Shown piece after piece: positions 6,359 to 48,335 of a stretch of DNA of 64,000 nt. This DNA comes from Escherichia coli (lineage in GTDB: Bacteria; Pseudomonadota; Gammaproteobacteria; Enterobacterales; Enterobacteriaceae): NCBI GenBank assembly GCA_025544715.1, contig GCA_025544715.1_4109.3. The stretch is one strand, 5' to 3'. The position numbers and the translations under genes are program-made. The notes beneath the pieces are model-generated. The model was not told where the DNA came from, ran no database searches, and worked only from the letters and a program-made list of their open reading frames with translations. Within the stretch, counting starts at the first letter, position 1. Every line of letters begins with the position of its first letter.

Positions 6359-6359
6359 G

Positions 6360-8942: not shown

Positions 8943-9118
8943 ATCACATACTTATTACTATGTGGGTCGTAACAATATGAATCATTTACCTTAATACCAG
9001 GCTTAAGTTCAATAGTTGTTCCTGTTTCAGTACTGGATTCCGCATCACAGTAAATCATCACACCAACTCCTGCGAGTAATGCTACGATACATACAATTAC
9101 ACCAATGGTATATTCCAT
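8933..9118 (-). CDS. Small membrane protein (61 aa)
   Basis: Hydrophobic N-terminal segment. Confidence 0.4.
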   Translation of the reverse strand: MEYTIGVIVCIVALLAGVGVMIYCDAESSTETGTTIELKPGIKVNDSYCYDPHSNKYVICL

Positions 9119-9131
9119 TTCAATTCCTCGG

Positions 9132-9527
9132 TTATAAAAAGTAATTATACATTTTATTGTACAATATAAAAAGATCTTTCACATTATCATAAGTAATATC
9201 AGATACATCATGAATTAATGATAACTGAAAAAATGAAGCTTCGTCTATTTCTGCTGGAATTATAACATCACCATCGTCTTCGTCCATTTTATTAGTGTAG
9301 TATTTTATGTGATCTACATTCAACTCAATAGAGAACGCAATGTTGGTTTTTGTATAATCTTCAATTAATCCAATATATTGAGATTTTTCATTAATAAAAA
9401 ATCCAATCCCAATACAACGGTTATCTGTATATGGATAGTACCATCTATTAATAACTAGGTGTTCAGGTAAGTCCATATCATGTGTTGATATTAGAGATTT
9501 TACAATTTCCATCCAGGAATAATTCAT
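9132..9527 (-). CDS. Hypothetical protein (131 aa)
   Basis: ORF in array. Confidence 0.45.
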   Translation of the reverse strand: MNYSWMEIVKSLISTHDMDLPEHLVINRWYYPYTDNRCIGIGFFINEKSQYIGLIEDYTKTNIAFSIELNVDHIKYYTNKMDEDDGDVIIPAEIDEASFFQLSLIHDVSDITYDNVKDLFILYNKMYNYFL

Positions 9528-9542
9528 AATTAAAACTCCATA

Positions 9543-9569
9543 AGAAAAGGGACAGAATTAATCTGTCCC
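9543..9569 (-). terminator. Rho-independent terminator after hpf
   Basis: Hairpin GGGACAGA-loop-TCTGTCCC then T-rich tract. Confidence 0.6.
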
Positions 9570-9580
9570 TTTAGTCTATA

Positions 9581-9913
9581 TTACTCTTCGTTTTCTGTCA
9601 AATCATCAAGAACTGGGTGTTCTGGATGGTTTCGGCGGTGTAATTTAATGCTTTTGTCTTTACTGAATACAGTTTCCATCTTATCAAAAGATTCAACAAT
9701 TGCTTTATACAAATCAGCATCATCAGCAGTGACTGATTTACTACCAGCAGTTAAAGTTACAGCATATTGAGTTTTATGCTCTTTCTTAACATGAACACCA
9801 ATGTCTAGTACTGAAGAAGTACGGTACTTATCCAGACTTTTTGCTTCATTGTAAATAGCATCTTGGATTGCTGGAGTGATATCAACGTTGCCTTGAATAT
9901 TTAGATTTAGCAT
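9581..9913 (-). CDS. hpf: Ribosome hibernation promoting factor (HPF/RaiA family)
   Basis: N-terminus MLNLNIQGNVDITPAIQDAI...KSLDKY parallels E. coli HPF MQLNITGNNVEITEALREFV...KLEQY from memory. Confidence 0.7.
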   Translation of the reverse strand: MLNLNIQGNVDITPAIQDAIYNEAKSLDKYRTSSVLDIGVHVKKEHKTQYAVTLTAGSKSVTADDADLYKAIVESFDKMETVFSKDKSIKLHRRNHPEHPVLDDLTENEE

Positions 9914-9929
9914 ATTTCACCTTCCTTTT

Positions 9930-10889
9930 TTAGAGTGAACTTAACAACAAATCTGCTCGGTTTGTAACTTGACGATACCATAAGGAATTCATGATTTCTT
10001 TTTTAAATTTCTTAGGGTTATCATTTTTTACGCTTTTCCAAAGCTTATTAAACGTAGCCAATTTATCGACACCCATTGTATAGGACATTTCAAAAAGAAT
10101 ACGTTGTTGTTCTTTGGTCAGATTTACTGCTTCTTTTTTCTGCATCAACAATAAAAAGTCATTATATGTTCTTTTCATATCTTGCATTAAAAGTTTATTG
10201 GCTTGAGCTTTGGTAATACCGTTTCTGTACTTAATCGCATCAGATTCTTTTCTACCCAAATAATGCCCATAACCTATTGTATAATTACCTTTCATGTCCT
10301 TGTAGGGATGAAATTTAGAATTGTGGAAAGGAACTCCGACTTTCCCACCAAGTAAACGGCGTTTGTTCTTGGACTGAAATTCAATTGAACCTTCAGCTTC
10401 TTTGATGTGATTGACAATTTCTGGATCATTATAATCAAACAGTACAGTCACATCTGGTAACAATACGTTCTTCAAATCCTCTTTTGTTGGGATAAAGATA
10501 CCCTGAGAAGTATGAAGAGTAGCATTTAAATTGATATTTTTCAACAAAATAACATACTCTTCAAGTTGTACATTTTTAGGTTTAAACTTTTTAGCAATAG
10601 AATAATAACTATCACCAGGTTGAACCGTATAATGCTTCTCGCCGCGTGGAACATCCTTTGATATTTCTACCTTTGGTAATTCCTGCTTTTGAATTTGCGT
10701 AACTTGTGGTTTTAAATTGTGTACCTGACTTTCGTCCGATGATGATACACGATCATTTTGAGAAAAACCATAAAATCCAATCGCAGCGACAAGTACTGTG
10801 CAAACTAGAACACCATAAGTAGTCTTAGTTTTCAGTGCTTTTTTCGCTTGTTTCAAAACGCCTCCTTTGTTGATTGTTAAGATGGGCAA
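9930..10889 (-). CDS. Membrane-anchored LysM plus T4-lysozyme-like (GH24-like) protein
   Basis: N-terminal TM segment, LysM-like HYTVQPGDSYYSIAKKF, C-terminal domain aligning to T4 lysozyme (YKDMKGNYTIGYGH); catalytic Glu position appears to be His. Confidence 0.65.
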   Translation of the reverse strand: MPILTINKGGVLKQAKKALKTKTTYGVLVCTVLVAAIGFYGFSQNDRVSSSDESQVHNLKPQVTQIQKQELPKVEISKDVPRGEKHYTVQPGDSYYSIAKKFKPKNVQLEEYVILLKNINLNATLHTSQGIFIPTKEDLKNVLLPDVTVLFDYNDPEIVNHIKEAEGSIEFQSKNKRRLLGGKVGVPFHNSKFHPYKDMKGNYTIGYGHYLGRKESDAIKYRNGITKAQANKLLMQDMKRTYNDFLLLMQKKEAVNLTKEQQRILFEMSYTMGVDKLATFNKLWKSVKNDNPKKFKKEIMNSLWYRQVTNRADLLLSSL

Positions 10890-11024
10890 TCACAAAGATG
10901 GCAAAGAGGCCATTTGCAAAAGCCTCATCGGACTTTCTACAGTACAAAAACGTTCTTTTCAAATGTTTAAGTAGTATAGCATATTTTTATTTTATTACAA
11001 GACATATTTACTGTAAAAACCACA

Positions 11025-11435
11025 TTAATCGTAGTAGGTTCTACCTACAGTTATGTGATATTTAAAGTACTTGGTTGGTAGTCCTAGTTCGTTTCTAATG
11101 TGTGTGATGAAATCATCTTCAAATTCAATGATAAAGAATGAACCTGGATTCTTTTTATCTTTTACTATCTCAATAGAAGGATTGAACTTTATCTTTACTT
11201 TCATTCCATCGTATTTTTTCCAGAACTCTTCATGTGGTGGTACTTCACCACGCACTATACTAACATGTGCTCCCCATTGAGGATCTTTAACATCAATATG
11301 TAAATCAGTTCTGATGAAGTACTGGTAGTATCTAACCAACTGTAATGGAAGTTGTAGTACTAACCAGAAGTCCTTCTTCTTTTTCATAGTGCCACGATCT
11401 GGATCATACACCAGAGTTCCTTCCATTTCAATCAT
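11025..11435 (-). CDS. 2H phosphoesterase superfamily protein (LigT/Acb1-like)
   Basis: Two H-x-[ST]-x motifs (HVSIV and HITVG) with spacing typical of 2H fold. Confidence 0.5.
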   Translation of the reverse strand: MIEMEGTLVYDPDRGTMKKKKDFWLVLQLPLQLVRYYQYFIRTDLHIDVKDPQWGAHVSIVRGEVPPHEEFWKKYDGMKVKIKFNPSIEIVKDKKNPGSFFIIEFEDDFITHIRNELGLPTKYFKYHITVGRTYYD

Positions 11436-11442
11436 ATGTTAC

Positions 11443-11646
11443 CTATAAAATTACATATATGTTTTTATTTTCAATACGAACATATGTTTCCAAAACATCT
11501 TTCGGAATTTTATTACTTGTTTTGAACCATGTAGTATTCTCTACTAAAACAAAAGTTTCACCTTCAGTTTCACCAAATGTACTTAGTGCATAAATGAAGT
11601 AATTGGGTGATGCACTACAATATATATCAGCATTAATTTCAATCAT
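11443..11646 (-). CDS. Hypothetical protein (67 aa)
   Basis: ORF in array. Confidence 0.35.
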   Translation of the reverse strand: MIEINADIYCSASPNYFIYALSTFGETEGETFVLVENTTWFKTSNKIPKDVLETYVRIENKNIYVIL

Positions 11647-11649
11647 ATG

Positions 11650-11781
11650 TTACACCACAATAAAGCTTAATACAACGAGTGTAATAAACACACCCACGAT
11701 GGCAGTCATTTCTGGGTTTGCATCATATGTATAGCGTATACATTTTAGAAAATCTTTACCAAATTTCTTTAGTCCATTCAT
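11650..11781 (-). CDS. Small tail-anchored membrane peptide (43 aa), not in ORF track
   Basis: Own translation MNGLKKFGKDFLKCIRYTYDANPEMTAIVGVFITLVVLSFIVV; AAGGA RBS upstream; abuts next gene start. Confidence 0.3.
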   Translation of the reverse strand: MNGLKKFGKDFLKCIRYTYDANPEMTAIVGVFITLVVLSFIVV

Positions 11782-11792
11782 ATATTTTCCTT

Positions 11793-12149
11793 TTATTTCT
11801 TGTGTAAAGGTTCATCACTTTCATAATAAATTGTATCATTATTTCGCTCTATAGTAAAGCTCTTTTGACACAACTCTTCAGCTAAACCCTTTGCATAGTT
11901 TAATACATCTCGGTTGAGATATACTTCTTCTTTTGGAAAGCGTGGGTACTGAATAATACGAGCACACATCCCACTTTCAAGACCACCCGTGTAGATGTAT
12001 TCACACGGAATCAATTGTACACAAAAACCAAGATTGAATGCAAACTTTCTTGTGTACTCTCTTGCTGTTTGAATATCACCAGCAATATGGATATTCCAGT
12101 ACTGTGTCTCCACTGTACCTTTATCGATGTATTTCATACTCATCTCCAA
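11793..12149 (-). CDS. Hypothetical protein (118 aa)
   Basis: ORF in array. Confidence 0.45.
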   Translation of the reverse strand: MEMSMKYIDKGTVETQYWNIHIAGDIQTAREYTRKFAFNLGFCVQLIPCEYIYTGGLESGMCARIIQYPRFPKEEVYLNRDVLNYAKGLAEELCQKSFTIERNNDTIYYESDEPLHKK

Positions 12150-20257: not shown

Positions 20258-23047
20258 TTATAAATCACGGAAACGATTTGGTGTGTTTAAACGGTACATT
20301 GAGTATAACCCCAATCCACGCATAATCTCACCTGCCCAGAAACCAAAAAACATACCATTATCAGTACCTTCTCTAACTGCTGGACTCCATGATCCATTCA
20401 TTGGGGAACTTGGATTTACAATAACATAATTCTTTTGAAGTTCTAAAACTAAGTTATCAGCGAGTGTCGTTAGACCTTCTATTTTACATCCAGCTAATCC
20501 AGCAGCACAAGCCCCAGCTAACCACAACCCACACATATGACCTGTAAAGTCCCAATCTGGTCCTTCAACTGTGCCATCTTTATTGAAGATTGTTGGTGAA
20601 CGACCATCATTATCTTTTTGAAATTGAATTAAAAAGTGAATCCAATTCTCACAAAAATCAACAAGATCTGCTGGTGGTTCGATTCCTCTTTCTGCAAGTT
20701 CTTGCCATGCTCTTGCAGCCCCAAAGAATGCACGAGGTTCATACCCGCTCCATGCTTGATCTCCCCAGTGTAGCATTGTGAACGTGTCTGGTTCACCATA
20801 TTTTAAGTTATCCCAGCGGTTCCAAACATATGCTTGTGCACATGGACCAACAGTACCGAATTGTTGAGTAAACCATGTTTGAGAATCTTTCATAAAGCTT
20901 AACATGTTGCCTAAACGTGTGTTATCTACTGGTTGGTCTTTAAAACAATATATCACTGGATACTGATAACCAGGATAAGGCAATCCACGCCAACCAGAAT
21001 ACTGATTCGCATACGGGTCAGTGATGTTAGAAAATGGTATTGTTCCAGGAGTGTAATGCAATGAGTTTAACAAATAATCTTTGATTACACAATCCCCTAA
21101 CTGTGCAGTATAAGGTGATTCACCTGCAATTGTTATTGAGAATGTCATGGTATAGTCATCACCGTCAGCATCCGTATATAATTCTGGAATGTCATTAATA
21201 CAATACCAATCAATTATTGCAGCAACACCATCTACTGGGGTTGTATCAGGTAAAATAGTAATATCTTCTAGCTCACTATAAACTGGTGCATCTGGTCTTG
21301 GATCAGAACTTGGATGATTTGGCTGATACCCAGATAAACGTAATGTATCAGAACTTAGTGTGATAGTAGTCCATTCCCCGTGTGTTGCAGGAATCATCCA
21401 CCACCATCTCCAACCATTATCATCTACAATTCGTATATTATAATCATCTTCATATGAACGATATGTGAAAGATTTAACTTCAGACTTATTTGTTGCTAAT
21501 AACCAAAATCCAATAACAGCACCATCATCTTCACCACAAACCAACTGATTAATTGTATCGCGTCTTGTGATTAATATATCAGTACTATATAACATTTCTG
21601 ATGTAGCTGCACCATAAGGAACAACAATTCTACTATCAGCAATTATATAAGGGGAACCATCTGCTTTCTTTTCTCTAACAAATGCACTTAAAGGTGTTAA
21701 TGAATGTGTGATATTTTGGTCTTTACTTTCTGGTAAGCCGCAACGATAACGAACAACATCATGGTCATTTTTTGTTTTTGACAATTCCAGTACTGGTTTA
21801 AATGATAACGGTTTACCATCATCGCACACGCCACCATAGTCAACTAGCAATTTTGAATCAGCATTTACCCTGAACCAAATAGCTTGTTGCTCCATCGTAC
21901 TCTGTGCACTTTGGTCTTGTCTGATAGTAATGTATCCTAACGAATTTCTACCAAACTTAGCAATAGCATCACTTGGATAAAAATATTCATAGGAAATACC
22001 ATCAGTGAATGGTGTGGTTACAATTGTACTTTGTCTGAAAAATTTATCTCTGGAGTCGATATCACCATAAGCATAGCATGTGAGTAGTGAACATTTCCAA
22101 CCCAAATAATGTTTTCTTTCTTTAGTTATTTTATATAACAAATACGAAGCATCACTGAACCATAATTCTGCATCTGATGCGTTATCAGCAAATTCTAAAT
22201 TAATTGGAACATGAAGTGGGCGGTTGTGTTGCATTTCATTTCGTTGAATTATTACACCACCATATTCTACTGGTTGACGATTAGCAAAATTTAATTTATA
22301 TACACCATTAATTGTTGTATTCTTTAATTGAACAGTTCCTTTTTCAGATTCGTCAAAACCTTCTGCTAAAATATTACCATCCCAGTCGATTTTTCTACCC
22401 ATGAAATCAATAACCCAGTCAACATCATATTGTTCACCTGGTGTATCCCAATCAACACTACCATCTGGTAATAAAGCTTTTACTGACGCATTTATTTGGT
22501 TCCATGCTAAAGCACCTTTGAATGCAAATGTCACTTTATCCAAGAACTGACCATAATATGGTGCACCATGTGGTATTTTGCATTGACCATTAGTAAATGT
22601 AAATTCTACTCCCTTGAAACCACCATGTGTGGGCCAGCCATCATCAGCTAAAGGCCAGTTAGCCAATATAGGTTCTTTTGCATTAACTATCCAGTTACAT
22701 TGTAGCGGTGTAGGTGGATCTGGTAATTCACGTCCAGCATAAAAGTACTGATGATATGCGTCCCAATACCACTTTGCCTTATCTAAAAACATTGGATCAT
22801 TTGTAGCCAGATATGCATAAATGTATCCTAAAATTAATAGACTTTGACCTTCTGTTGTCCCGTCACCGTTTGGTTGACCTTCCATTGCAGAATAGTTAAT
22901 AAAATGGCGGTTGTTCGCCAAAACACCCTGATTGTTCACCACATAATGCTGTACTGTTGGGTCTATTGTATCACCAGTATTTCTTTCAATAAATTTGTGA
23001 TGCCCATAAAGAAGTTGTACAATATTATCAATATTATTGTTTAACAT
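20258..23047 (-). CDS. Large protein (929 aa), unknown function; possible glycosidase-like or virion-associated
   Basis: Long ORF; Trp/Gly-rich C-terminal region; followed by terminator. Confidence 0.55.
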   Translation of the reverse strand: MLNNNIDNIVQLLYGHHKFIERNTGDTIDPTVQHYVVNNQGVLANNRHFINYSAMEGQPNGDGTTEGQSLLILGYIYAYLATNDPMFLDKAKWYWDAYHQYFYAGRELPDPPTPLQCNWIVNAKEPILANWPLADDGWPTHGGFKGVEFTFTNGQCKIPHGAPYYGQFLDKVTFAFKGALAWNQINASVKALLPDGSVDWDTPGEQYDVDWVIDFMGRKIDWDGNILAEGFDESEKGTVQLKNTTINGVYKLNFANRQPVEYGGVIIQRNEMQHNRPLHVPINLEFADNASDAELWFSDASYLLYKITKERKHYLGWKCSLLTCYAYGDIDSRDKFFRQSTIVTTPFTDGISYEYFYPSDAIAKFGRNSLGYITIRQDQSAQSTMEQQAIWFRVNADSKLLVDYGGVCDDGKPLSFKPVLELSKTKNDHDVVRYRCGLPESKDQNITHSLTPLSAFVREKKADGSPYIIADSRIVVPYGAATSEMLYSTDILITRRDTINQLVCGEDDGAVIGFWLLATNKSEVKSFTYRSYEDDYNIRIVDDNGWRWWWMIPATHGEWTTITLSSDTLRLSGYQPNHPSSDPRPDAPVYSELEDITILPDTTPVDGVAAIIDWYCINDIPELYTDADGDDYTMTFSITIAGESPYTAQLGDCVIKDYLLNSLHYTPGTIPFSNITDPYANQYSGWRGLPYPGYQYPVIYCFKDQPVDNTRLGNMLSFMKDSQTWFTQQFGTVGPCAQAYVWNRWDNLKYGEPDTFTMLHWGDQAWSGYEPRAFFGAARAWQELAERGIEPPADLVDFCENWIHFLIQFQKDNDGRSPTIFNKDGTVEGPDWDFTGHMCGLWLAGACAAGLAGCKIEGLTTLADNLVLELQKNYVIVNPSSPMNGSWSPAVREGTDNGMFFGFWAGEIMRGLGLYSMYRLNTPNRFRDL

Positions 23048-25386: not shown

Positions 25387-25896
25387 TTAACCACCATACT
25401 TTGACTTGTATGTTTCAAGTGATAAAGATATACGATTTTGCTTTTTAATTCTTTCATCAATATCCTTTGAATTCTTCACACTTCGGTATACGTCAGCTAA
25501 TAAATTATAATCTTCTTTATTTGAGCTATGCTGTGTCCAACCTATGTCTGTTTTAATACGAACACTTGCTTTATTTGACCAGTAAAAGAAACTGAAACCA
25601 TTTGACCCATCAAAAATATCAAAAGTATCTACCCAATCACCATAAGGAAAACTCGTCGGGACTGACTCGTGGTCGATTGTGATATCCGATAAATTGTTTG
25701 AACAGTACTTCGCAAAGTGATAAACAATTGGATCACATTTAGATAATTCATATTTGTATTCAATGATAGTTTTTCTATTAGCATCATTGATAGCATATTC
25801 TTTCATCAATGGGCTTTTTTTGATGATAAGAGTCCACAGAAACGATTCTAATCCGGTTTCATCAACTTTTTGTTTCTTTTTGAAAAATGAAATCAT
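25387..25896 (-). CDS. Hypothetical protein, member 1 of tandem triplicated family
   Basis: Shared block DxxRKxIIEYKYxLSK with the next two ORFs. Confidence 0.5.
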   Translation of the reverse strand: MISFFKKKQKVDETGLESFLWTLIIKKSPLMKEYAINDANRKTIIEYKYELSKCDPIVYHFAKYCSNNLSDITIDHESVPTSFPYGDWVDTFDIFDGSNGFSFFYWSNKASVRIKTDIGWTQHSSNKEDYNLLADVYRSVKNSKDIDERIKKQNRISLSLETYKSKYGG

Positions 25897-26414
25897 TTAT
25901 ATAAACCCTTAATTTTCTGTCTATTATGTATATCATTTTGCTGGATTTTCAATTTAGTAAGGTTGTTTCTTACACCTTCAACTCCACGCATTATTTGTAA
26001 CATAATTAGTGATTCGTCATATGTTAGTACATTGCTATTATTATCGATATATACTTTCACTCCACTTTCAAGATAATCATTTTCTTTGGAGTTAAAGTTT
26101 CTAATAGCAAACTTAACTTTATTTGTTGTATCACTGAATACATATCGTTCCGCACCGTAGAATGTTTTTCCACGAAATAAACCGCCGTCTTCCCACTTCC
26201 AACGGCTAGATTCATAATCATTAACGTAATCAAGGATTAAAGAAAGTAAAGGATGTTTACTTAATTTATATTTTGCTTCTAACAGGATACGTCTATCATT
26301 ATCTGTGGTGATAATATCCTTTAGTGAGTAGCTTTTAGATATAATTTTAAAGATAATTTCATGCCAAATTAATGTACTGTTTTGTTTTCCAACTGATCCA
26401 AAAAACATATCCAT
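25893..26414 (-). CDS. Hypothetical protein, member 2 of tandem triplicated family
   Basis: DNDRRILLEAKYKLSK and SSRW blocks. Confidence 0.5.
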   Translation of the reverse strand: MDMFFGSVGKQNSTLIWHEIIFKIISKSYSLKDIITTDNDRRILLEAKYKLSKHPLLSLILDYVNDYESSRWKWEDGGLFRGKTFYGAERYVFSDTTNKVKFAIRNFNSKENDYLESGVKVYIDNNSNVLTYDESLIMLQIMRGVEGVRNNLTKLKIQQNDIHNRQKIKGLYK

Positions 26415-26420
26415 TCCTCA

Positions 26421-26987
26421 TTAGTATAAATCAGTAATGTCTTTGTATGCATTAATCTGTTTTTGTTGTAATGAAAGTTCATTGAGTTTAGTTACCATCT
26501 TATCTACACCAACACGTGTATAGAAAATAATTAATGAATCTAAATTGCCTAGAGTAATTCTTGAACTGTAAGTTGAAAGTTTTCTTGCATAAACATAAAT
26601 TTCTTCTTCACTTGGTAAACGTTTCTCAATCAGCAAGTTTTCCACACCATTCGGCTCATAATCAATCTCGAACTCTACGCCTATCACTGTGTCTTGAATG
26701 CGATCCGTATATGAACCACCGTAAAAATACTCTCTTGGTTTGGATCTCCAACGAGAACTAAATGGGTCTGTTGCGTATTCTTTTACAAATTTGTAAAAGG
26801 ACATTTTACTGAGCATATACTTCATCTCAATTAGTGCTTTGCGGTCATCATCAGTTTTAAACTCTGCTTTGAGCGATGGACTTTTACACAGTAACTTAAC
26901 TAAATTGTTGTACATCTTTAATGTACGTTGTTCTTTCATTTCTTTGATTTTGTGACGTTTTGGTGGTGGTAATAAAGATTTGACCAT
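26421..26987 (-). CDS. Hypothetical protein, member 3 of tandem triplicated family
   Basis: DDDRKALIEMKYMLSK and SSRW blocks. Confidence 0.5.
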   Translation of the reverse strand: MVKSLLPPPKRHKIKEMKEQRTLKMYNNLVKLLCKSPSLKAEFKTDDDRKALIEMKYMLSKMSFYKFVKEYATDPFSSRWRSKPREYFYGGSYTDRIQDTVIGVEFEIDYEPNGVENLLIEKRLPSEEEIYVYARKLSTYSSRITLGNLDSLIIFYTRVGVDKMVTKLNELSLQQKQINAYKDITDLY

Positions 26988-27020: not shown

Positions 27021-27048
27021 AAAAGAAAAGCCCGTCAATAGACGAGCT
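27021..27048 (-). terminator. Probable terminator after fibre-like gene
   Basis: Imperfect hairpin AGCTCGTC-TATT-GACGGGCT then TTTTCTTTT. Confidence 0.45.
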
Positions 27049-27054
27049 TTAAAT

Positions 27055-29784
27055 TTATTTCCAACGTGTACCTGGACCTGATGGTACACCAGTACTGGCA
27101 GGTATCGCTGAACCACGTTTCGTTGTACTTGGGCGATATGTCAAAAAACGAGTCACTTTTTCAGTATCAATCGAAGTAATTCCTGAAGTTCCAGTAACTA
27201 TCTTACCAATGTAAGTGCTAGTTAAAGATTCATCAATAGTTTCAGTACTAATAACATATGACGCTTTCTTAGTATTCCTGTTCATTTGTATATACAAATA
27301 GAACGTAGTATTAGCTGGATTACTTTTTACCGTACTTAAATCTACACTTTGTATAGGTAGTCTGTCGAAAATTCCACCTAAAAACACCGGAACTTCACGT
27401 GTAAAGTACACTGAGAATCCTTGTGCAACGTCTTGTGATACTACCACAATCTTTTCTTTAACGCTACCATTTCCGCTAATTAAACCATCCATTTCAGCAG
27501 ATGTTGTACCAAAAACGCTGAATACAGATTTGGTTTGATAGTCAGAATCTTGAAAATTGTAATATCCAAAACCAACACCAGGAATAACACCATGTTGATA
27601 TGCTGCACCGAGTTGGATGTAACTAGATGACAAAAAACGATTTGATGTTATGACACCATCTACCGTTTTAGCTATCATCATCTTAAATTGTGCATTACCT
27701 GGTTGTGAAAATTGATGAACTGCATCAACACCAATGTAACCGAATCCTGAATATTTAGCAACTGTTAGACCAGTACAACGTTTCATATATGCTTCAGTAA
27801 TAATTCCTGTAACAGAACTAAGTGTCTCATATCTAGTACTTACCAATGAAGCTGAAGTTATGTTAGTTCCAGATAATACAACATCAACTTCGGCATAAAT
27901 TGCATAACCTTGGTTATTGTTAAGATTATATGCTGAAACTACTGCAATGGATTTAGAAAAAGTATTATCAGGTACATAATATAATACAATTTGTCCAGAT
28001 AGTGTACCAACAATGCCAGAGTTTCCTAGATTAGCAAAAATATCTTGTTTTAATGATTCTAATACCGTTGGTTCTATTGTATATGTTTCATCAAATTCTA
28101 AAGTATCTGGGTTTAATAATCCACCACTTGTTTTATATACACCTTCAATGAATGATGTTCCATAGCATCTAACACTACCATCGGTATCAACAAGAGAAAT
28201 CATAGCAGTGTATGTAAAATCATCACCTATTTGTTTACGATTAGATTGTGGTGCAAAACCATTTAATGTAGTATTATTTTGAACTGAGTTATATTGATAT
28301 GTTGGTTGTGAGCCTATTTCAGAAAAAACAGTATTATTATAATTATATGTTACATCATCATACGTACCAGAACATGCTAATAATATTTTTCTATTATCGA
28401 TGAAACGTACACCTAATAGGTTTGCACCAACAGCACTACCAAAAACTGGTAAAACGTTTGCATTTATAACGTTACTTGCGGATCTAGTACTAGCAACCCA
28501 TGAATCAAACGGTGTGCCACTAACCTTATATCGTTGTAGACCATAAAATTCAGTTGAACTCCATCTAAATTTAGATGCAAATACTAAACCATCTTTGGTT
28601 TGACATAAACCACCTGCGTTTCCTAATACACCAGCAGCAGTTGTCCCAGTGAAGTTGACCATATCGATTTCAAATGGGTTAGAAACTTGAAATCCATTAT
28701 TATATGAAACTGTAGCAGGAGCACGAGCAGAACCATCTAGTGACATAGATTTTGAGTTTATATTATAAACAAAACTGATACCAGTACCATACACTGTTGA
28801 AATATATAAAGGTGTAACCATTCTATGTGTTGGGTATAAAGTTACACGTATTTTGGATAAATCAGTACTAACGTTTGCTTGTATATTAAAGTCTGTATAA
28901 TCCGAAAATTCTACACGTGAGACTGGTGATGTAACTTCGAATAATGAATCCGAGCTAGTACCAACACTATATAATCTATCAAACACTCTTATGTTATTAG
29001 ATGCAGAATAACTTGTATTTCTAACAGTTTGCCCTGATAATCCAGTAACTTTTGTTAATGATGCCATTGAGCTTGCTTTCACATCACTTAGCTCTACTGT
29101 ATAAATTGAAAGTGCTAATCCTAAATTAGAAACACTTTTATCTTTACACCAAATATATACTTTTGTTCCAACAATATGAGTATATATAGGCATATCATTA
29201 CCAAAAGAAGTACTTGGTACTTTAGCATGAATATGTGATACTTCGTTGAATGTACCATTAGTTATAGTAAAAATATAATTATCTTCTGTACTTAAACATC
29301 CAAGCATTTCATAACCATTAGAGCCAATAAAATACTTAATATTCTCTGTACTACTCATAATTGAAGGTTTATACATTGAATTGGTTGAAATAACACTTTC
29401 TTGTGAAATCATGGTTATATTTCTGATTTCTCGTATAAATGAATAATAAAAACCTTTAGTACTGCCATTCGTCCCACTACGTAGAACAACAGCAGTACCA
29501 TCATCTTCAATAATAGTCGGTTGAACAACTTGATCACTTGACATAGGTGTAGCACCTTCATACGACCCACTTACGTTTAATGGTAAGTAATCCATTTCTC
29601 CTACACGTGATATAGGCAACATATCTAAAATACTTTGAACTTCAGAACGCTTGTATATTGGATATTGAACAATTCCAGTATTTGCATTCGGTGAGGTTCC
29701 ATTGAAAGTACGCATAGCGTACCTTCCTCCAATTGCTAAGTTCCCAAGGATCTCGGCACTTCCTATAATTCGTTTTGATGACAT
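27055..29784 (-). CDS. Tail-fibre-like large protein (909 aa from ATG 29784), paralog of 30400-33096
   Basis: Start MSSKRIIG parallels paralog MSKKIYGG; track start 29874 would overlap upstream gene; shared C-terminal module incl. KSNPANTTFY. Confidence 0.5.
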   Translation of the reverse strand: MSSKRIIGSAEILGNLAIGGRYAMRTFNGTSPNANTGIVQYPIYKRSEVQSILDMLPISRVGEMDYLPLNVSGSYEGATPMSSDQVVQPTIIEDDGTAVVLRSGTNGSTKGFYYSFIREIRNITMISQESVISTNSMYKPSIMSSTENIKYFIGSNGYEMLGCLSTEDNYIFTITNGTFNEVSHIHAKVPSTSFGNDMPIYTHIVGTKVYIWCKDKSVSNLGLALSIYTVELSDVKASSMASLTKVTGLSGQTVRNTSYSASNNIRVFDRLYSVGTSSDSLFEVTSPVSRVEFSDYTDFNIQANVSTDLSKIRVTLYPTHRMVTPLYISTVYGTGISFVYNINSKSMSLDGSARAPATVSYNNGFQVSNPFEIDMVNFTGTTAAGVLGNAGGLCQTKDGLVFASKFRWSSTEFYGLQRYKVSGTPFDSWVASTRSASNVINANVLPVFGSAVGANLLGVRFIDNRKILLACSGTYDDVTYNYNNTVFSEIGSQPTYQYNSVQNNTTLNGFAPQSNRKQIGDDFTYTAMISLVDTDGSVRCYGTSFIEGVYKTSGGLLNPDTLEFDETYTIEPTVLESLKQDIFANLGNSGIVGTLSGQIVLYYVPDNTFSKSIAVVSAYNLNNNQGYAIYAEVDVVLSGTNITSASLVSTRYETLSSVTGIITEAYMKRCTGLTVAKYSGFGYIGVDAVHQFSQPGNAQFKMMIAKTVDGVITSNRFLSSSYIQLGAAYQHGVIPGVGFGYYNFQDSDYQTKSVFSVFGTTSAEMDGLISGNGSVKEKIVVVSQDVAQGFSVYFTREVPVFLGGIFDRLPIQSVDLSTVKSNPANTTFYLYIQMNRNTKKASYVISTETIDESLTSTYIGKIVTGTSGITSIDTEKVTRFLTYRPSTTKRGSAIPASTGVPSGPGTRWK

Positions 29785-29800
29785 CTTTCTTTTCCTTAAT

Positions 29801-30388
29801 TTACCAACCAATTGTACCAGTTTCTGATGGTTTCCCAGTACTGACTGGGAATGAAGAACCTTTTTGTGTAACACTAGGTCTATATGTACTAAATCTGGAT
29901 ACTTTATTAATGTTTATATTTGTAATGCCACTTGTACCAACGGTAAGAGTTCCAATAAACATTATAATTTCAGATTCTTGTATTTGTGTTGGTGATACTT
30001 TATATATTGGTTCACCGAGAACTAACGTTGCATATACATATTGTGTTTGTGTCCCAGATGAAACTGTTGAAGCAAAAATAGAAACTGCTGGAAATTTATA
30101 AAGATAACCACCAATAAATGATGGTATTTCTCTATTAAATGTAAGACTATAACCAGACGAAGTAATATTTAGACTTGCATCATCATACAATTCACCGTAT
30201 TGTGTGAGTGGTAATCCATTTACAATAAAATTAACTTCATCTTTAGTAATAGAGGGGAATGTACATTCCCCATTTGAATTTGTTGGGTAATAAGTCATAT
30301 TATTACCTAATACACCAAGTCCAGTACTTTTACCCTGTACTGTAACTTGTTGCATTGCCTTAAGGTCTGCTCTTATTTTATATGCCAT
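29801..30388 (-). CDS. Short fibre-like protein (195 aa) carrying the shared C-terminal module
   Basis: C-terminus SSFPVSTGKPSETGTIGW parallels large paralogs. Confidence 0.5.
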   Translation of the reverse strand: MAYKIRADLKAMQQVTVQGKSTGLGVLGNNMTYYPTNSNGECTFPSITKDEVNFIVNGLPLTQYGELYDDASLNITSSGYSLTFNREIPSFIGGYLYKFPAVSIFASTVSSGTQTQYVYATLVLGEPIYKVSPTQIQESEIIMFIGTLTVGTSGITNININKVSRFSTYRPSVTQKGSSFPVSTGKPSETGTIGW

Positions 30389-30399
30389 TATGTAATCCT

Positions 30400-33096
30400 T
30401 TACCAGTTTATGGTTCCTGTTTGTGATGGTAGACCGTAGCTAACTGGGAACGATGAACCTGCTGATTCAAGTGAAGCACCAAATATATCTAAACGTGAAC
30501 GTTTTTGTATATTAATTGTTTCGATTTGAATTGCATTAGTTTGAATTGTACCTATCCAAAAAATATTATATGCAGTTGTTCCTGTTTCAGAAATAACATC
30601 AGTAGTTATGTAATAGTTTGCCAATCCTTGGTCCAATTTAACATATACATAAAATGTTGTATTTGCTGGATTAGACTTAATAGTTCTCAAATCAATATTT
30701 GAAACTGGTAGTGAAAATGACTTACCTGAAAGAATAACTGGTGTTTCTTCTGTAAAATATACAATAAACCCTTGAGCAACGTCCTGTGATACTACGTTAA
30801 TTGGGCTACCTTGTGCAGTCCAGTTATTATAGTCTGTAATCGTTGTCCCATATTTTTTGAATGTCATTTTATTTGAGTAATCCATTGGTTCAAAAATTCC
30901 AAAACCAATACCAGGTAACGCTGCTGGTTGACTTCCCTGTTCATAACTGGCATGAGAACCAGTAATTATAAAACTTGTAAATTGTGCAGTTGATTTAGTT
31001 ACATATGCTCTAAATTGATGAGTTGCAGTATTACCTATTGTTGGATGTGATAATGGGTCAGAACCACCAATGAAGTAGAATGAACCTCCATCATATATTG
31101 TCAAACCAACAGAAGAAGATGCAATCGAACCATTTCCAGTTGGTGTAAAGTTATCACCATACGTATTCTCAAGTACTAAACGCTTGAATGTAATAGATGT
31201 AATATTACCAACTCTAGTATTGACGTTAACTTCAGCAATTCTAATATAGTTTCTATAATCATTAGTAATTGTACTCAACATAACAAAAGCTGGAATGTCT
31301 GTTTGTTGTGGAACAAATAGTGTCATATCACGGTATGCTTGTGGTGATAAATTCCAATCACTTAGAACTTTAGCATATTCAGTATTTCTAAAATTGTCCA
31401 GTACTGATTGTGTAACACTTATAATGCCTGTACCATTTAAGTTTTTATCATAGGATAATGATTGTGAATAACGTTGCCCAACCATAAAAATACCACCATT
31501 GGTTGTAACAGTTGACCCAGAAATACTACTAATGAAAATTCTATTATTTGCATTATCATCAACGTTAGCACGTTCAACTGTAGGTTCATAACCTTGTATT
31601 GTTCCTAAAGATAATGATTTAAATGTAAAATTAGGAGTACTTTTATGAACTGCATATGATGGTCTAAATCCACCACTACCTGATGCACGTGAATATTGTT
31701 TAGTACTGTTATCTGGTAGTAATTCTACACCATTAATAAATGAACCAACCGCTGAACCAAAAGACGGGCGAACTATACCACCTTTGAAGTCAGTAGAAAG
31801 TACAGCACGCACATTCAGCATACTATAAACTATTTGAATAGGAAACTTAGCTTTTTGCATAAGCAATGGTTCTGCTAAGTTTGGACATGCAGTACAAAAT
31901 GCTTCACCTGAATTTAAATAAAAATATGAACTGTAAATATTCCTTGCATTTGCATGGTTATACAATGGATCGTTATTTAAAACGTTTCCAGTAGGAACTA
32001 ATGCTGAACCGGTATCAGTAATAACTAATGGTGCTTGGTATGAACCAATATCATTACCTGCATCTAATGTACATTGTTTAGTACTCATGTTGAATACAAA
32101 ACTGTAACTATGTTGTGGTCGTGTATTATAAGTTGCCATTGTGAACCAAGCATCACCATTCATTCTAAAGCGGAAGTTCTGTGTACCTGGCTGCTGTGCA
32201 ACACATAAATCGATTGATGTCATGTAAATCCCAATACCACGTAGATTTTTTGGAACATACACATAAGGTTTATCAGCGATATTTGTTGATGTTACCTGAT
32301 TAGTTATAACCATATTATTTTGTGCAGAATAAGTTGTGTTATAAAATGTTTTAGTAGTCCATCCAGTAACACGAGTTGCGGTATAAGTACCATTACTGAT
32401 ATTATAAACCACTTTAACTACAACTAATTGTAATTGGTTATTTGCATTAAGTACGTTAAAAACATATATAGAACCATCTTCTGCCATCATAGCATATTCA
32501 ATACCACCTTCAGGTGATATATCTGCTTGGTTAACGAAAAAACCAGTATGCAATTTATCATCTAATGTACCATTAGTAATTGATATGAACAAACCATTAG
32601 TACTGTTAGAAGTGTCTACATATCTACCGAGTAAAATATTTGGATCAGTATTGTATAAGCCAATTGCGACTCGATTAGAACCGAAAAAACCAGGCTTGTA
32701 TTGACGACTGGTGTTAATTGTACGGCTCATGTCATCAACTGATAATGCGTTAGCCAAATATGAATAAAATAATCCCTCAACACTACCGTTTGTTCCACTA
32801 CGTAAAAGTACTAGTGTACCATCGTTTTCTAATAAAATTTTATTTCTACGTTGGGTCTGGTTTTCGGATGCACCATTGAAATCTCCAGAAACACCAGCAG
32901 GTAGATAGTTTTGTGAACCATAATGGGAGATTGGCATCATGCTTACTATATCTAGTACTTCATCTCTGGAATACGTGTCTAATTCCATGTTACCATTTGA
33001 ATCAAACACTTGTTCATTTATTCCTTGAATTGTTCTTTTACCATTAACTGTCACATTATGTGTGACATCTAAGCCACCATATATTTTCTTTGACAT
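30400..33096 (-). CDS. Tail-fibre-like large protein (898 aa)
   Basis: Paralog of 27055-29784; TATAAATA-like box upstream; Ser/Thr/Asn/Gly-rich. Confidence 0.5.
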   Translation of the reverse strand: MSKKIYGGLDVTHNVTVNGKRTIQGINEQVFDSNGNMELDTYSRDEVLDIVSMMPISHYGSQNYLPAGVSGDFNGASENQTQRRNKILLENDGTLVLLRSGTNGSVEGLFYSYLANALSVDDMSRTINTSRQYKPGFFGSNRVAIGLYNTDPNILLGRYVDTSNSTNGLFISITNGTLDDKLHTGFFVNQADISPEGGIEYAMMAEDGSIYVFNVLNANNQLQLVVVKVVYNISNGTYTATRVTGWTTKTFYNTTYSAQNNMVITNQVTSTNIADKPYVYVPKNLRGIGIYMTSIDLCVAQQPGTQNFRFRMNGDAWFTMATYNTRPQHSYSFVFNMSTKQCTLDAGNDIGSYQAPLVITDTGSALVPTGNVLNNDPLYNHANARNIYSSYFYLNSGEAFCTACPNLAEPLLMQKAKFPIQIVYSMLNVRAVLSTDFKGGIVRPSFGSAVGSFINGVELLPDNSTKQYSRASGSGGFRPSYAVHKSTPNFTFKSLSLGTIQGYEPTVERANVDDNANNRIFISSISGSTVTTNGGIFMVGQRYSQSLSYDKNLNGTGIISVTQSVLDNFRNTEYAKVLSDWNLSPQAYRDMTLFVPQQTDIPAFVMLSTITNDYRNYIRIAEVNVNTRVGNITSITFKRLVLENTYGDNFTPTGNGSIASSSVGLTIYDGGSFYFIGGSDPLSHPTIGNTATHQFRAYVTKSTAQFTSFIITGSHASYEQGSQPAALPGIGFGIFEPMDYSNKMTFKKYGTTITDYNNWTAQGSPINVVSQDVAQGFIVYFTEETPVILSGKSFSLPVSNIDLRTIKSNPANTTFYVYVKLDQGLANYYITTDVISETGTTAYNIFWIGTIQTNAIQIETINIQKRSRLDIFGASLESAGSSFPVSYGLPSQTGTINW

Positions 33097-33130: not shown

Positions 33131-33138
33131 TATTTATA
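33131..33138 (-). promoter_or_regulatory. T4-late-promoter-like box TATAAATA (minus strand)
   Basis: Exact octamer ~35 nt upstream of start codon 33096. Confidence 0.3.
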
Positions 33139-33145
33139 TACATAA

Positions 33146-33168
33146 CAAAAAAGCACCCAACGGGTGCT
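33146..33168 (-). terminator. Rho-independent terminator after nrdG
   Basis: Hairpin GCACCC-loop-GGGTGC then T6. Confidence 0.6.
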
Positions 33169-33172
33169 TATG

Positions 33173-46255: not shown

Positions 46256-46263
46256 TATAAATA
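46256..46263 (+). promoter_or_regulatory. T4-late-promoter-like box TATAAATA (plus strand)
   Basis: Exact octamer ~150 nt upstream of plus-strand gene start. Confidence 0.25.
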
Positions 46264-46409
46264 ATATAGTACTTAAACACTTAAGTCAAACTTTTTCTGT
46301 ACTTAACTCAAATTTCCCTCATCAGATAATCCCCTTAGTACAATCACTGTGAAGATTCTATCACAAACCCATACCAAATGTAAAGCTTTTTTTATAAGGA
46401 GTGCCCTTC

Positions 46410-48335
46410 ATGGGAAAACCAATTGCAGGACAAGACCAATTTCCATTCACTATAGGTGGATATTTAGTTGATGGTGCAAACATAAAAGGTACAACATATG
46501 TAAAATCGTTGTACATCTACAAACAGCGTTCCTCTGATTTGTATGATTTAATGGATTCAAATGGAACAATATATCGTTTTATTCGTATTGTTGGATATGG
46601 TCAAGATGGTAACAGATTAAATTATTTTACACCAGCAGAAGAAATTGTACCAAATCTGGCGACCAATACATTTTTTATAAAAGTTCAAGATGCTGAAAGA
46701 AATATATTTTCATTTGTTAGATTGTACCAATTAAATAAAATAATAACATTCGATGGTGATTATATTTTTAGAAAAATAGATAAAGATCGTTATCTAAGTG
46801 GTGTGTTAATTCAACCATCATTAACTACATTACAAGTTGGTAAAACCAGTTCACTGCATTGTGTATTCTACCCTAATGATTACTATGATACTGATGGAAC
46901 TTGGTACATAAACGACCATTCTGATATAAATCCAGAAATACCTAGTAAGTATGCTAAAATCATAGAATATAATAAAAATGAAGTATCTATTGAAGGAACA
47001 TCGGTGGGTATGTCAATACTTTCATTTGTTCCTAAAAATAATAAATCCATAATTTCACATTCTCTTATTAACATTGTTAATGAAAATGTAGATATAGAAT
47101 ACATGGTTGCCGAAAGAAGTTCTCCATTTTTTAATCATTATATTGGCAATGAATGGACTATTCAAATAGTCACATATCCGTATGACGCGACTATACAATA
47201 CCCTCTTGAAATCGTAATCGATGCGGAAGTAGATCCTTATATGAAAATTGCCACTACCGAGTTAGTTGGAGTCTCTGAAAATAATAAAATATATACATTT
47301 AAATCAACACTTGAGCCAGATTTAGAATATTATATAGATTATTATCCACAAATCACCTTCACTATGAATGAACCTTACAAATTTAGTGCATTGTTTGAAA
47401 ATAAAATTTGTTTGTCTGGTTGGGAAAGATATTGTGAAAAAATTACCAGTCCTGGAAAGTTATTTTCTATTGATGAATATGTACGTCCAAACACGACTAA
47501 AACATTAAAATATTGGTTAATGAATGATTATGACCAACATATGTATCCAATACGTTCAACTGATGATGAAATTGCCACAATTGATGTAACAACTGGTATA
47601 TTGAGAACTTACGATAAAAGAGGAACAGTATCTTTCTATACAAATTATACTGATATAACTACTGGGGCCATTAGTCAAGATGAATATTTAGTTGGGAAAC
47701 TAACCGTTACAGACGATGTGTACGATTTAATCGAGGTAGAACCATCAAATATACAATATATGTTCCCAAATCAATCACAACAATTCACGTTAACTGGTTA
47801 TAGAGAAGGTTATCCAAATACATCTTTTAATGTTAATGTAAGTATGTTGAACAATTATGCAACTTCTTCAAACAATATCGTCACTATTAACGAAAATACA
47901 TCTAATAACTCTAGATTTAAGATAGTATCAGATTTCAATGGTAATTATAAAAACTTTAGTAGTATATATTCTAATCAAACACCATCTATTATAGTAAAAA
48001 CAAATCCAAATGATTTAACTCCAATACAAAGTATTGATGTTTCTGAAAATGAAATTTTATCTATAAGAATGGCTGAAGAAAATGAAATAGATGATTATAA
48101 AGTTAGTTTTTATCCAAAACCAAATTATTGTGTTAATTATGAACTTGAAATTGTATCATATGATAATACTATAATTGAAATATATGATAAAGAAAATGCA
48201 TTAAAAAACGGGCTAAATTATTATGGTAATATTATGTTATACATAACACCAAAAAGTCCTGGAAGTACCGAGATTGTTGTTAGATCTGTTCATTACCCAG
48301 ATGTACAACAATCTGTAAAAGTAGTTGTTTATTAA
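46410..48335 (+). CDS. Plus-strand large protein (641 aa from ATG 46410), possible virion decoration/adhesin
   Basis: AGGAG RBS 9 nt upstream; N-terminal ~110 aa paralogous to next gene; Asn/Ser/Thr/Tyr-rich. Confidence 0.55.
   Translation: MGKPIAGQDQFPFTIGGYLVDGANIKGTTYVKSLYIYKQRSSDLYDLMDSNGTIYRFIRIVGYGQDGNRLNYFTPAEEIVPNLATNTFFIKVQDAERNIFSFVRLYQLNKIITFDGDYIFRKIDKDRYLSGVLIQPSLTTLQVGKTSSLHCVFYPNDYYDTDGTWYINDHSDINPEIPSKYAKIIEYNKNEVSIEGTSVGMSILSFVPKNNKSIISHSLINIVNENVDIEYMVAERSSPFFNHYIGNEWTIQIVTYPYDATIQYPLEIVIDAEVDPYMKIATTELVGVSENNKIYTFKSTLEPDLEYYIDYYPQITFTMNEPYKFSALFENKICLSGWERYCEKITSPGKLFSIDEYVRPNTTKTLKYWLMNDYDQHMYPIRSTDDEIATIDVTTGILRTYDKRGTVSFYTNYTDITTGAISQDEYLVGKLTVTDDVYDLIEVEPSNIQYMFPNQSQQFTLTGYREGYPNTSFNVNVSMLNNYATSSNNIVTINENTSNNSRFKIVSDFNGNYKNFSSIYSNQTPSIIVKTNPNDLTPIQSIDVSENEILSIRMAEENEIDDYKVSFYPKPNYCVNYELEIVSYDNTIIEIYDKENALKNGLNYYGNIMLYITPKSPGSTEIVVRSVHYPDVQQSVKVVVY

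Follow-up and report, generated by a model that had tools for sequence, protein, structure and literature searches.

Three adjacent genes of a jumbo Escherichia coli phage, here called ORFs A, B and C, probably encode baseplate-docked adhesins that carry beta-propellers (A and C) together with a conserved, shoulder-only paralog (B). They lie in a 64,000-nt stretch of DNA (the window) from an Asteriusvirus, a member of the 121Q/PBECO4/phAPEC6 group, with 96.7% nucleotide identity to Asteriusvirus genomes. Little has been established about the receptor-binding proteins of 121Q/PBECO4-group jumbo coliphages, most of whose genes lack an assigned function. The three genes treated here are labelled hypothetical in all related genome records inspected, and the analysis provides them with a likely role and a domain plan. 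The original prediction described the products as receptor-binding proteins. Host adhesion is indeed their probable role, based on the shoulder-like module they share, on a homologous tail protein of phage SPN3US (gp168) and on a tailspike cluster found in the same genomic slot in phage RaK2, but the shared module is taken to be the conserved docking part and not the variable receptor-binding end.

All three genes are on the minus strand. ORF A (30400..33096; 898 aa) is the position-1 paralog and corresponds to 121Q gp499, phAPEC6 gp323c and G17_00424. ORF B (29801..30388; 195 aa) occupies position 2 and corresponds to 121Q gp500 and G17_00423, while ORF C (27055..29784; 909 aa), the position-3 paralog with an architecture like that of A, is equivalent to 121Q gp501 and G17_00422. 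The genes are separated by 11 and 16 nt and form one operon with a terminator at each boundary and a late-promoter motif at its head, in the order terminator, TATAAATA, three genes, terminator. The upstream boundary is an intrinsic terminator hairpin (33151..33169, minus strand), AAGCACCC-GTT-GGGTGCTT followed by a T run, which closes the nrdG transcription unit and was identified from a terminator scan and the sequence; CBB, Kae01, Kaldavass and Yen9-04 have the same hairpin ahead of their first paralog. A second intrinsic terminator, detected by the scan, is located right behind the stop codon of ORF C (27027..27050, minus strand). Both are annotated as terminators in phage G17. ORF C starts with the ATG at 29784, preceded by AAGGA, and its length of 909 aa is that of the G17 annotation; a 939-aa reading frame starting with GTG and overlapping B was discarded as a mechanical ORF-calling artefact.

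The TATAAATA box noted in the original prediction is present at 33131..33138 on the minus strand and is a conserved motif of the T4 late-promoter type. It sits between the terminator and the ribosome-binding site of ORF A, with its ATAAATA core starting 41 nt upstream of the ATG. Each of the five lineages examined has ATAAATAC at -39 to -42, and the arrangement terminator/ATAAATAC/ATG is likewise kept. The motif is rarer than expected in the window (3 copies vs 13 expected) and this is the only copy on the window's coding strand. ATAAATA is a predicted late promoter before structural genes in CBB and GAP32, and the distance between the box and ORF A suits a T4-type late promoter upstream of a late (structural) gene. 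This predicted promoter may be used by a gp55-like sigma factor.

Pairwise BLASTP bears out the proposal that the three products are paralogs with a common C-terminal module. The two large proteins share their N-terminal regions, as proposed, but A and C are in fact homologous from end to end (27% identity over 946 columns, E 2e-62) and the N-terminal segment is also present in B. The small protein matches the large ones over their first ~65 and last ~120 residues: 34% identity with A over ~75 aa (E 5e-7) at the N-terminus, 36% over 125 aa (E 5e-17) at the C-terminus, and 43% with C over 120 aa (E 4e-24). Two sequence signatures had been attributed to the module as a whole. KSNPANTTFY occurs in A and C but is replaced by VSSGTQTQYVY in B, and the ending ...GSSFPVS.G.PS.TGTI.W applies to A and B but not to C, which ends ...GSAIPASTGVPSGPGTRWK. 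No further copy of A, B or C was found in the window by tblastn. When ORF C served as the query, each of the Asteriusvirus genomes listed was matched by tblastn at only two sites: the region of ORF A, and that of ORFs B and C joined together. A and C match phrog_3573 over their full length (E 1.1e-272 and 1.9e-266, respectively) and B matches phrog_26864 in the same way (1.5e-114); neither PHROG carries a function label. Pfam yielded no match for any of the three proteins at E up to 1, and a sequence search of the PDB returned nothing, either with the single proteins or with a family profile.

A fibre-like fold had been expected from the sequence. The AlphaFold2 model of A (pLDDT 86.7, pTM 0.80) is instead globular and all-beta, with a propeller body and no beta-helix or fibre shaft; it has none of the elongated beta-helices, triple-helical or coiled-coil shafts of tail fibres and tailspikes. 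On the basis of BLASTP and the model, A can be divided into an N-terminal segment (aa 1-75; 32872..33096), an all-beta body (aa 76-770; 30787..32871) without counterpart in B, and the C-terminal module common to all three proteins (aa 771-898 and stop; 30400..30786), all on the minus strand; the corresponding module of C lies at about 27055-27438 of the same strand. The body comprises about 13-14 four-stranded blades in the model and probably forms two tandem beta-propellers. Foldseek comparison of the full A model with the PDB returned only generic propellers with very low TM-scores, and these matches are therefore of little use for function.

The N-terminal segment, which is common to B and C, includes short strands, a helix (44-53) and the motif (L/M)P(I/L)S.YG. 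In the C-terminal module, a beta-sandwich (about 775-870) precedes a conserved tail, GSSFPVSYGLPSQTGTINW. The segment has low confidence in the monomer model and the tail is unstructured there, as might be expected of regions that become ordered only in an oligomer. In B, the N-terminal segment is joined straight to the C-terminal module, with no propellers. The shared module has the beta-sandwich of two antiparallel sheets and the long helix of the receptor-binding-protein (RBP) shoulder of siphophages and the TssK N-terminal domain, and its predicted fold matches the shoulder domain by which receptor-binding proteins dock onto the baseplate. From B and the other mini proteins, where the two halves are contiguous, we infer that they also form one domain in A and C, although the N-terminal segment and C-terminal tail are modelled at low confidence. 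The sandwich is the last domain of A and C, the propellers being placed between it and the N-terminal segment. This order is odd for a receptor-binding protein, with the docking sandwich C-terminal to the presumed binding body.

These features suggest the following scheme. A, B and C would be encoded by a late-transcribed three-gene operon and be present as low-copy virion proteins at the tail or baseplate periphery. Their common module, composed of the N-terminal helix-containing segment and the C-terminal beta-sandwich with its short conserved tail, would trimerize and dock on the baseplate by clamping a loop of a partner protein, as p2-type receptor-binding proteins and TssK do. The propellers of A and C, about 700 aa inserted between the module halves, would provide the part that binds the host surface, probably a glycan. 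B, a module without propellers, may be an adaptor, a docking-site filler or a subunit of a mixed trimer.

The earlier suggestion that these are virion proteins is supported through orthologs. The ORF A ortholog phAPEC6 gp323c was identified in virions by mass spectrometry with 4 peptides (5.6% coverage), which indicates virion association only. Mass spectrometry of GAP32 virions likewise detected GAP32_144 and GAP32_145, which are orthologous to the second and third genes; CBB_147, CBB_148 and CBB_149 were not detected in the CBB virion analysis. Two of the three triad genes lack annotation in the phAPEC6 record, a gap which shows why virion proteomics can miss such proteins.

CBB_147/148/149 and GAP32_143/144/145 are direct orthologs of the triad and occur in the same order after nrdG, with CBB_149 and GAP32_145 corresponding to ORF C. 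The CBB paper had already recorded that they are paralogs (supplement S2, Table S1). In the records and the paper checked, they are labelled only as hypothetical or structural proteins, and neither a fold nor a domain or function is assigned to them. CBB and GAP32 have a full-length middle gene (916 aa), whereas Asteriusvirus and Kae01 have the 195-aa mini form. In all, the three lineages are found in one operon and in the same order in Asteriusvirus, Mimasvirus (CBB), Eneladusvirus (Yen9-04), Kaldavass and Kae01. By position, A, B and C are orthologous to the position-1, position-2 and position-3 proteins, respectively, and the C-terminal tails are lineage-specific and strongly conserved. To judge from these three orthologous lineages across genera, the triplication is old. 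A neighbour-joining tree of the C-terminal module has four clades, each well supported, but bootstrap values do not exceed 38% for the link between the mini proteins and the large position-2 proteins. That B derives from position 2 is thus deduced not from the module tree but from gene order, from N-terminal signatures (a MAY start and a shared insertion of 3-5 residues) and from HMM and BLAST scores.

Among the best 150 profile matches there were 148 new representatives, and about 40% of these are shoulder-only proteins. One metagenomic relative, P0195, carries the module at its N-terminus, followed by Big_2 and Gp38 adhesin domains. This is the usual order of receptor-binding proteins, which was seen only in remote relatives such as this one. 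A tblastn search of isolated phages with P0195 and with the mini-type P0093 recovered only module matches that were already known.

Diversification by domain shuffling, with short shared DNA segments mediating recombination, had been proposed for the three genes and is not supported: the lineages are old, and their order is kept across several genera. The dN/dS ratios of A, B and C (0.03-0.05) indicate strong purifying selection; they give no sign of diversifying selection in the three genes and are low in the propellers too. The propellers have no hypervariable tip, and this combination is atypical for host-range determinants. The best repeats between the genes are only 70-80% identical over 40-70 nt, and near-exact stretches do not exceed about 18 nt. 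No sign of recent domain shuffling was found. ORF A has 90% nucleotide identity with the 121Q/G17 allele (dS 0.48) while its neighbouring genes are less diverged. This allelic mosaicism of ORF A hints at exchange of alleles between phages.

One alternative concerns how the subunits assemble. The three paralogs could be parts of a single mixed complex, such as a 1:1:1 heterotrimer in which their differing shoulder modules hold the subunits together. In Asteriusvirus, where the propellers of the position-2 subunit were lost, it would have two propeller arms and a stub. Such a complex would refine the idea of baseplate-docked adhesins and is not opposed to it. There are exactly three lineages in a fixed order in each operon, their tails are lineage-specific, payload-less B is still under purifying selection, and shoulder domains are trimeric in both p2 RBP and TssK. 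The phiKZ gp131/gp133/gp134/gp135 hetero-hexamer (PMC13250141) provides a jumbo-phage precedent. However, the known shoulder-domain proteins are homotrimers, related jumbo phages have one copy (SPN3US) or two (EL) rather than three, and only two of the three GAP32 proteins were found by mass spectrometry. We therefore view a mixed complex as possible but rather unlikely. Its strongest form, an obligate assembly on three non-identical shoulder modules in which the propellers of one subunit were precisely removed in Asteriusviruses and Kae01-like relatives to leave an asymmetric two-arm, one-stub adhesin, is more doubtful still. If true, such an adhesin would be a natural way to tune valency or geometry at a baseplate docking site, and shoulder-only proteins would be widespread, unrecognized adaptor or cap subunits in jumbo-phage tails.

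A different location was also considered, in which the triad forms the bases or decorations of hairy whiskers, or collar proteins, on the sheath, collar or capsid of phAPEC6 and CBB, and not baseplate adhesins. Both phages are hairy and both carry the paralogs, their hairs have no assigned genes, and RaK2 has no homolog. Yet the CBB hairs measure about 119 nm and the predicted propeller bodies are compact; in the CBB study it was anticipated that GAP32 would lack the hair genes, but GAP32 has the triad; and the shoulder fold and the homology with SPN3US gp168 favour the baseplate or tail periphery. That three paralogs could be set against three rings is merely a numerical match. We judge this location improbable. 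It is more improbable again that the main role of the proteins is enzymatic, with propellers serving as the catalytic domains of, for example, glycosidases or lyases which act on the host envelope and are only loosely associated with the virion; sialidases, GH43, GH130 and GH32 enzymes and polysaccharide lyases are among the propeller matches. Least tenable, and largely refuted, is the idea of fibre-like receptor-binding proteins which diversify by module shuffling, with short shared DNA driving recombination between paralogs, since their presence in virions, a module resembling part of a receptor-binding protein and the divergent ORF A allele are outweighed by the absence of a predicted fibre or beta-helix, the low identity between the paralogs, the weak DNA repeats and the stability of the lineages under purifying selection.

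If the products are baseplate-docked adhesins, as we favour, they offer candidate targets for engineering the host range of therapeutic jumbo phages, and B, a natural propeller-less paralog, could be used for testing docking. On the predicted structures, the shoulder docking fold of p2 and TssK would also be extended to giant myophages of Gram-negative bacteria, in a split, C-terminal arrangement.

The shoulder systems with which the triad was compared are the receptor-binding proteins of lactococcal phages p2 and 1358, SPP1 gp22 and TssK of the T6SS. In p2 RBP and TssK, the shoulder domain is trimeric, and a triangular loop of the baseplate partner is clamped in the crevice of the trimer (the Dit 'hand' or TssG, respectively). 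These proteins have no detectable sequence similarity with the triad. Their shoulder is N-terminal and is followed by a neck and a receptor-binding head, whereas the sandwich of A and C is C-terminal, with the module split by about 700 aa of propellers, and B has no head. Unlike these systems, the triad belongs to a jumbo myophage of Gram-negative bacteria, and trimerization and loop clamping are predicted only by analogy.

Homology ties the triad to a tail protein that has been placed experimentally. SPN3US gp168 is a 188-kDa tail protein according to mutant proteomics, termed a baseplate/fiber protein by its authors. Its alignment with the family profile extends over 772 columns (hhalign probability 98.6%, E 5e-16), and its residues 544-1410 correspond to the whole unit of linker, propellers and C-terminal module. 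The C-terminus of phage EL gp115 matches the module, including the conserved tail (hhalign 98.7%), and phrog_7449, the family of SPN3US gp168 and EL gp114-115, matches A (E 1.8e-36) and C (1.5e-35); tblastn gave matches to this family as well. By these profile comparisons, SPN3US gp168 and EL gp114/gp115 are true remote homologs of the triad. They differ in that gp168 is twice as long, the unit being flanked by about 540 additional residues on its N-terminal side and 320 on its C-terminal side, and in that neither phage has a three-gene array or a mini paralog beside the homolog.

The SPN3US literature prompted us to consider whether the triad belongs to the phiKZ gp131 family. This was rejected: hhalign of profile A1 gave probabilities below 1% for the three proteins compared, gp131 (0.1%) and the SPN3US-linked gp145 (0.8%) and gp146 (0.1%). 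There are nevertheless parallels. Like A, B and C, the baseplate fibre proteins gp131-gp135 are paralogous jumbo-phage tail proteins with a common attachment region; gp131, gp133, gp134 and gp135 assemble into a mixed, hetero-hexameric fibre base. A beta-propeller of gp131 is proposed to bind the host, and a small member, gp132 (110 aa), lies beside the large ones. Their attachment region is an N-terminal six-helix bundle and the propeller is C-terminal, unlike in the triad.

Finally, in RaK2 the slot directly after nrdD and nrdG is occupied by a tail fibre/tailspike cluster (ORF525w-534). The cluster, of a type shared with K64-1, has 9-10 genes compared to three in the triad and encodes virion tail proteins, whose annotations are tail fibre, tail or tailspike and which resemble the tailspike and lyase proteins of K1E, K1-5 and K5. 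Neither tblastn nor two profiles revealed homology between A, B or C and this cluster, and its presence at the same position is a non-homologous replacement at a conserved site, the slot after nrdG being an adhesin cassette site across Rak2-like phages.

ORFs A (30400-33096, 898 aa), B (29801-30388, 195 aa) and C (27055-29784, 909 aa), three neighbouring genes on the minus strand, are paralogs, with a similarity far beyond chance. For ORF C, a GTG start overlapping ORF B in the mechanical ORF list was set aside for the ATG at 29784, which has an AAGGA ribosome-binding site and agrees with the G17 annotation. The similarity between ORFs A and C spans both proteins in full (27% identity, E 2e-62). 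ORF B matches the last ~120 aa of both A (36%, E 5e-17) and C (43%, E 4e-24), and the first ~65-75 aa of A can also be aligned to it; it thus consists of an N-terminal segment fused to the C-terminal module. The common C-terminal module of the original prediction is therefore confirmed. The N-terminal regions said to be shared by the large proteins are also present, but A and C align throughout and the match of B includes the N-terminus of A. The motif KSNPANTTFY and the ending described for all three do not hold: B lacks the motif and C ends differently (…GSAIPASTGVPSGPGTRWK). No further copy of the paralogs was found within the window, and in each listed Asteriusvirus genome tblastn with ORF C detected only two places, the region of ORF A and that of ORFs B and C joined.

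The 6.2-kb region shares 94.6-96.7% nucleotide identity with about 22 Asteriusvirus jumbo phages of E. coli and Salmonella, including JP4, UB, PBECO4, phAPEC6, 121Q and G17. The counterparts (gp499, gp500 and gp501 in 121Q) are labelled hypothetical proteins throughout. The existence of the paralogs is already known, since the supplement of the CBB paper lists the paralogy of CBB_147, 148 and 149; no fold, domain plan or role is assigned to them in the records and papers checked. Their presence in virions is supported by orthologs. That of ORF A, phAPEC6 gp323c, is among the 62 proteins obtained by virion ESI-MS/MS (4 peptides, 5.6% coverage). In the phAPEC6 GenBank record (MK817115), positions 6056-9389, equivalent to 27055-30388 of the window, list only a 114-nt ORF; the orthologs of B and C are unannotated there, with both frames intact, and could therefore not have been detected by the published mass spectrometry. 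The CBB supplement calls CBB_148 and CBB_149 structural on the strength of GAP32_144 and GAP32_145, both identified in GAP32 virions by mass spectrometry; the two CBB proteins were undetected in CBB virions, and the supplement lists no RaK2 homolog for them.

The gaps separating A, B and C are only 11 and 16 nt. A terminator hairpin 3′ of nrdG (33169-33151, minus strand) and a second terminator after the stop of ORF C (27050-27027, minus strand) flank the three genes. The predicted TATAAATA box is present (33138-33131, minus strand), 41 nt before the ATG of ORF A, and the order AAGCACCC…GGGTGCTTTTTTT, ATAAATAC, TATAGGGATA-like ribosome-binding region, ATG is also found 5′ of the first paralog in CBB, Kae01, Kaldavass and Yen9-04. 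ATAAATA is the predicted late promoter before structural genes in CBB and GAP32, according to the CBB paper, which also reports a gp55-like sigma factor. TATAAATA is strongly depleted in the window (3 copies, where shuffles predict 13 ± 3.9), with a single copy on the minus strand, which holds 24 of the 25 ORFs of at least 200 aa; this scarcity fits selection against spurious late promoters. Another copy (46256-46263, plus strand) precedes by ~140 nt the single large ORF that the window has on this strand (46401-48335, 644 aa). At its N-terminus the encoded protein matches phrog_33171 and phrog_10468, both "virion structural protein" families, and its gene is probably a further late structural gene standing on its own.

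An AlphaFold2 model of ORF A, with an alignment of 42 sequences as input, is confident (pLDDT 86.7, pTM 0.80) except for residues 1-60 and 871-898. Residues ~86-770 form about 13-14 four-stranded blades, as counted from the strand list only, and two tandem propellers are the best reading of this predicted body; a nine-strand domain follows at residues 775-870. The model contains neither a beta-helix nor a fibre shaft, which argues against the fibre-like fold originally proposed. Fold matches of the shared C-terminal module (scores in brackets) included the p2 RBP (8.9), the cyanophage A-1(L) tail fibre (7.8), the 1358 RBP (7.2), SPP1 gp22 (6.9), three TssK entries (6.2, 5.4 and 4.9), the HFTV1 tail fibre gp42 (6.1), a phi812 baseplate protein (5.5), Mtd (4.5) and IglD (4.3). 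The p2 and 1358 RBPs, gp22 and TssK have in common a shoulder domain of two four-stranded sheets and a long helix; as a trimer, this domain grips a triangular loop in Dit or TssG (PMC7291167). The tripod proteins of phage 812 are likewise docked on triangular loops of the arm scaffold.

We consider it fairly probable that the three genes form an operon, expressed late, whose products are low-copy proteins at the periphery of the tail or baseplate: propeller adhesins with a shoulder-like module and a shoulder-only B. The shared module would be a docking and oligomerisation domain, which may trimerise and clamp a loop, and the tandem propellers of A and C would be the likely host-binding part, engaging a ligand. 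ORF B, a conserved paralog comparable to SPP1 gp22, may act as a shoulder alone. An attractive variant of this docked-adhesin arrangement, a mixed assembly of A, B and C, seems rather unlikely. Less likely still, the proteins would belong to the hairy whiskers, or to the collar decorations, seen on phAPEC6 and CBB, a reading that poorly fits both the predicted shape and the presence of the genes in GAP32. The literature search found no high-resolution structure of an Asteriusvirus tail.

CBB (Mimasvirus), Kaldavass and Yen9-04 (Eneladusvirus) carry three ~900-aa paralogs after nrdG; the window and Klebsiella phage Kae01 have the 195-aa form as their middle gene. Numbering the genes from nrdG, BLASTP identifies ORF A as an ortholog of position-1 proteins (45% to CBB_1, 60% to Kae01_1) and ORF C of position-3 proteins (36-45%). 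The nearest match of ORF B is Kae01_2 (56%); the large position-2 proteins come next (45-48%, 105-106 bits), ahead of position 3 (78-90 bits) and position 1 (55-79 bits). A neighbour-joining tree of the C-terminal module separates position 1, position 3, large position-2 and mini (propeller-less) proteins. Three clades have 93-100% bootstrap support and the large position-2 clade 98% without Yen9-04 or 62% with it; this tree does not settle where the mini clade attaches. The link between mini proteins and position 2 is drawn from gene order, shared N-terminal signatures (MAY as the first residues, an insertion of 3-5 residues, and a short linker after LPLSQYG) and mini-profile scores (208-219 bits for position-2-type large proteins, at most 133 for others). 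Since the alignment of the large position-2 proteins with A and C includes the propeller region, the simplest history would be an old triplication followed by clean propeller loss in the Asteriusvirus/Kae01 line.

Comparison with phAPEC6 and G17 gives a dN/dS of 0.026-0.047 for A, B and C; for the propeller region of A it is 0.037-0.050. Direct DNA repeats between the paralogs are weak. Given this purifying selection and the weak repeats, neither diversification by domain shuffling nor recombination through shared DNA segments, both suggested originally, is supported. ORF A is only 90.3% identical in nucleotides to the 121Q/G17 allele (dS 0.48) and its flanking genes are less diverged, which hints at allele exchange between phages with purifying selection still acting.

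In RaK2 (NC_019526), the slot of the three genes in Asteriusvirus, CBB, Kaldavass, Yen9-04 and Kae01 holds a tail fibre/tailspike cluster (322764-345682, ORF525w-534), directly after nrdD, nrdG and ORF524. The sequences of this cluster show no similarity to those of A, B or C, which suggests an adhesin cassette slot conserved across Rak2-like jumbo phages and occupied by unrelated genes. Directly downstream of the second terminator are three small tandem paralogs (25387-26987, minus strand; 169, 173 and 188 aa) with the motif K-S-x-S-L-K…D-x-D-R-(K/R)-x-L-x-E-x-K-Y-x-L-S-K. They match phrog_18641 and phrog_7868, families with no assigned function, and the gene at 26421-26987 has a dN/dS of ~0.3 against phAPEC6 and G17, far above other genes compared. 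Some 4 kb downstream of ORF C is encoded a 929-aa protein (20258-23047, minus strand) that matches phrog_2871 (tail protein) and is no paralog of these three ORFs; its phAPEC6 ortholog, gp314c, is a "tail fiber protein" that mass spectrometry detected.

The mini-protein profile retrieved 428 cluster representatives among 1.84 billion proteins. Within the best 150 of these matches, 148 representatives are new, of which 61 measure 100-299 aa and 62 measure 800-999 aa; a few are as long as 1100-2500 aa. After a helical N-terminal extension, mini proteins of other lineages have the same VLPVSQFG motif and then a short linker leading into the sandwich, so that the halves split by propellers in A and C adjoin in many natural proteins. 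P0195 (636 aa) carries the module at residues 74-230, then a Big_2 and a Gp38 adhesin domain, the usual order of receptor-binding proteins. Its conserved motif past the sandwich (GSAIP…W) runs into the distal domains, suggesting that in A, B and C the unstructured tail at the C-terminus may correspond to the start of a neck. The family profile also matches SPN3US gp168 (772 columns, probability 98.6%, E 5e-16), a 188-kDa protein assigned to the tail by mutant-particle proteomics and termed a baseplate/fiber protein by its authors, and the C-terminus of EL gp115 (98.7%).

These genes can thus be assigned to an already known functional kind, that of shoulder-domain adhesins docked on the baseplate; unusual here are the split, C-terminal arrangement of the module and the natural payload-less paralog. 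Membership of the phiKZ gp131 family was ruled out, gp131 having no similarity to the three proteins, nor do gp145 and gp146. The gp131 paralog system nevertheless resembles them in their possible way of working. In phiKZ (9483-12143), the fibre protein gp131 (771 aa) is directly followed by gp132 (110 aa), listed among the gp131 paralogs in the phiKZ atlas, a large-plus-mini pattern that parallels that of A, B and C without sequence homology.
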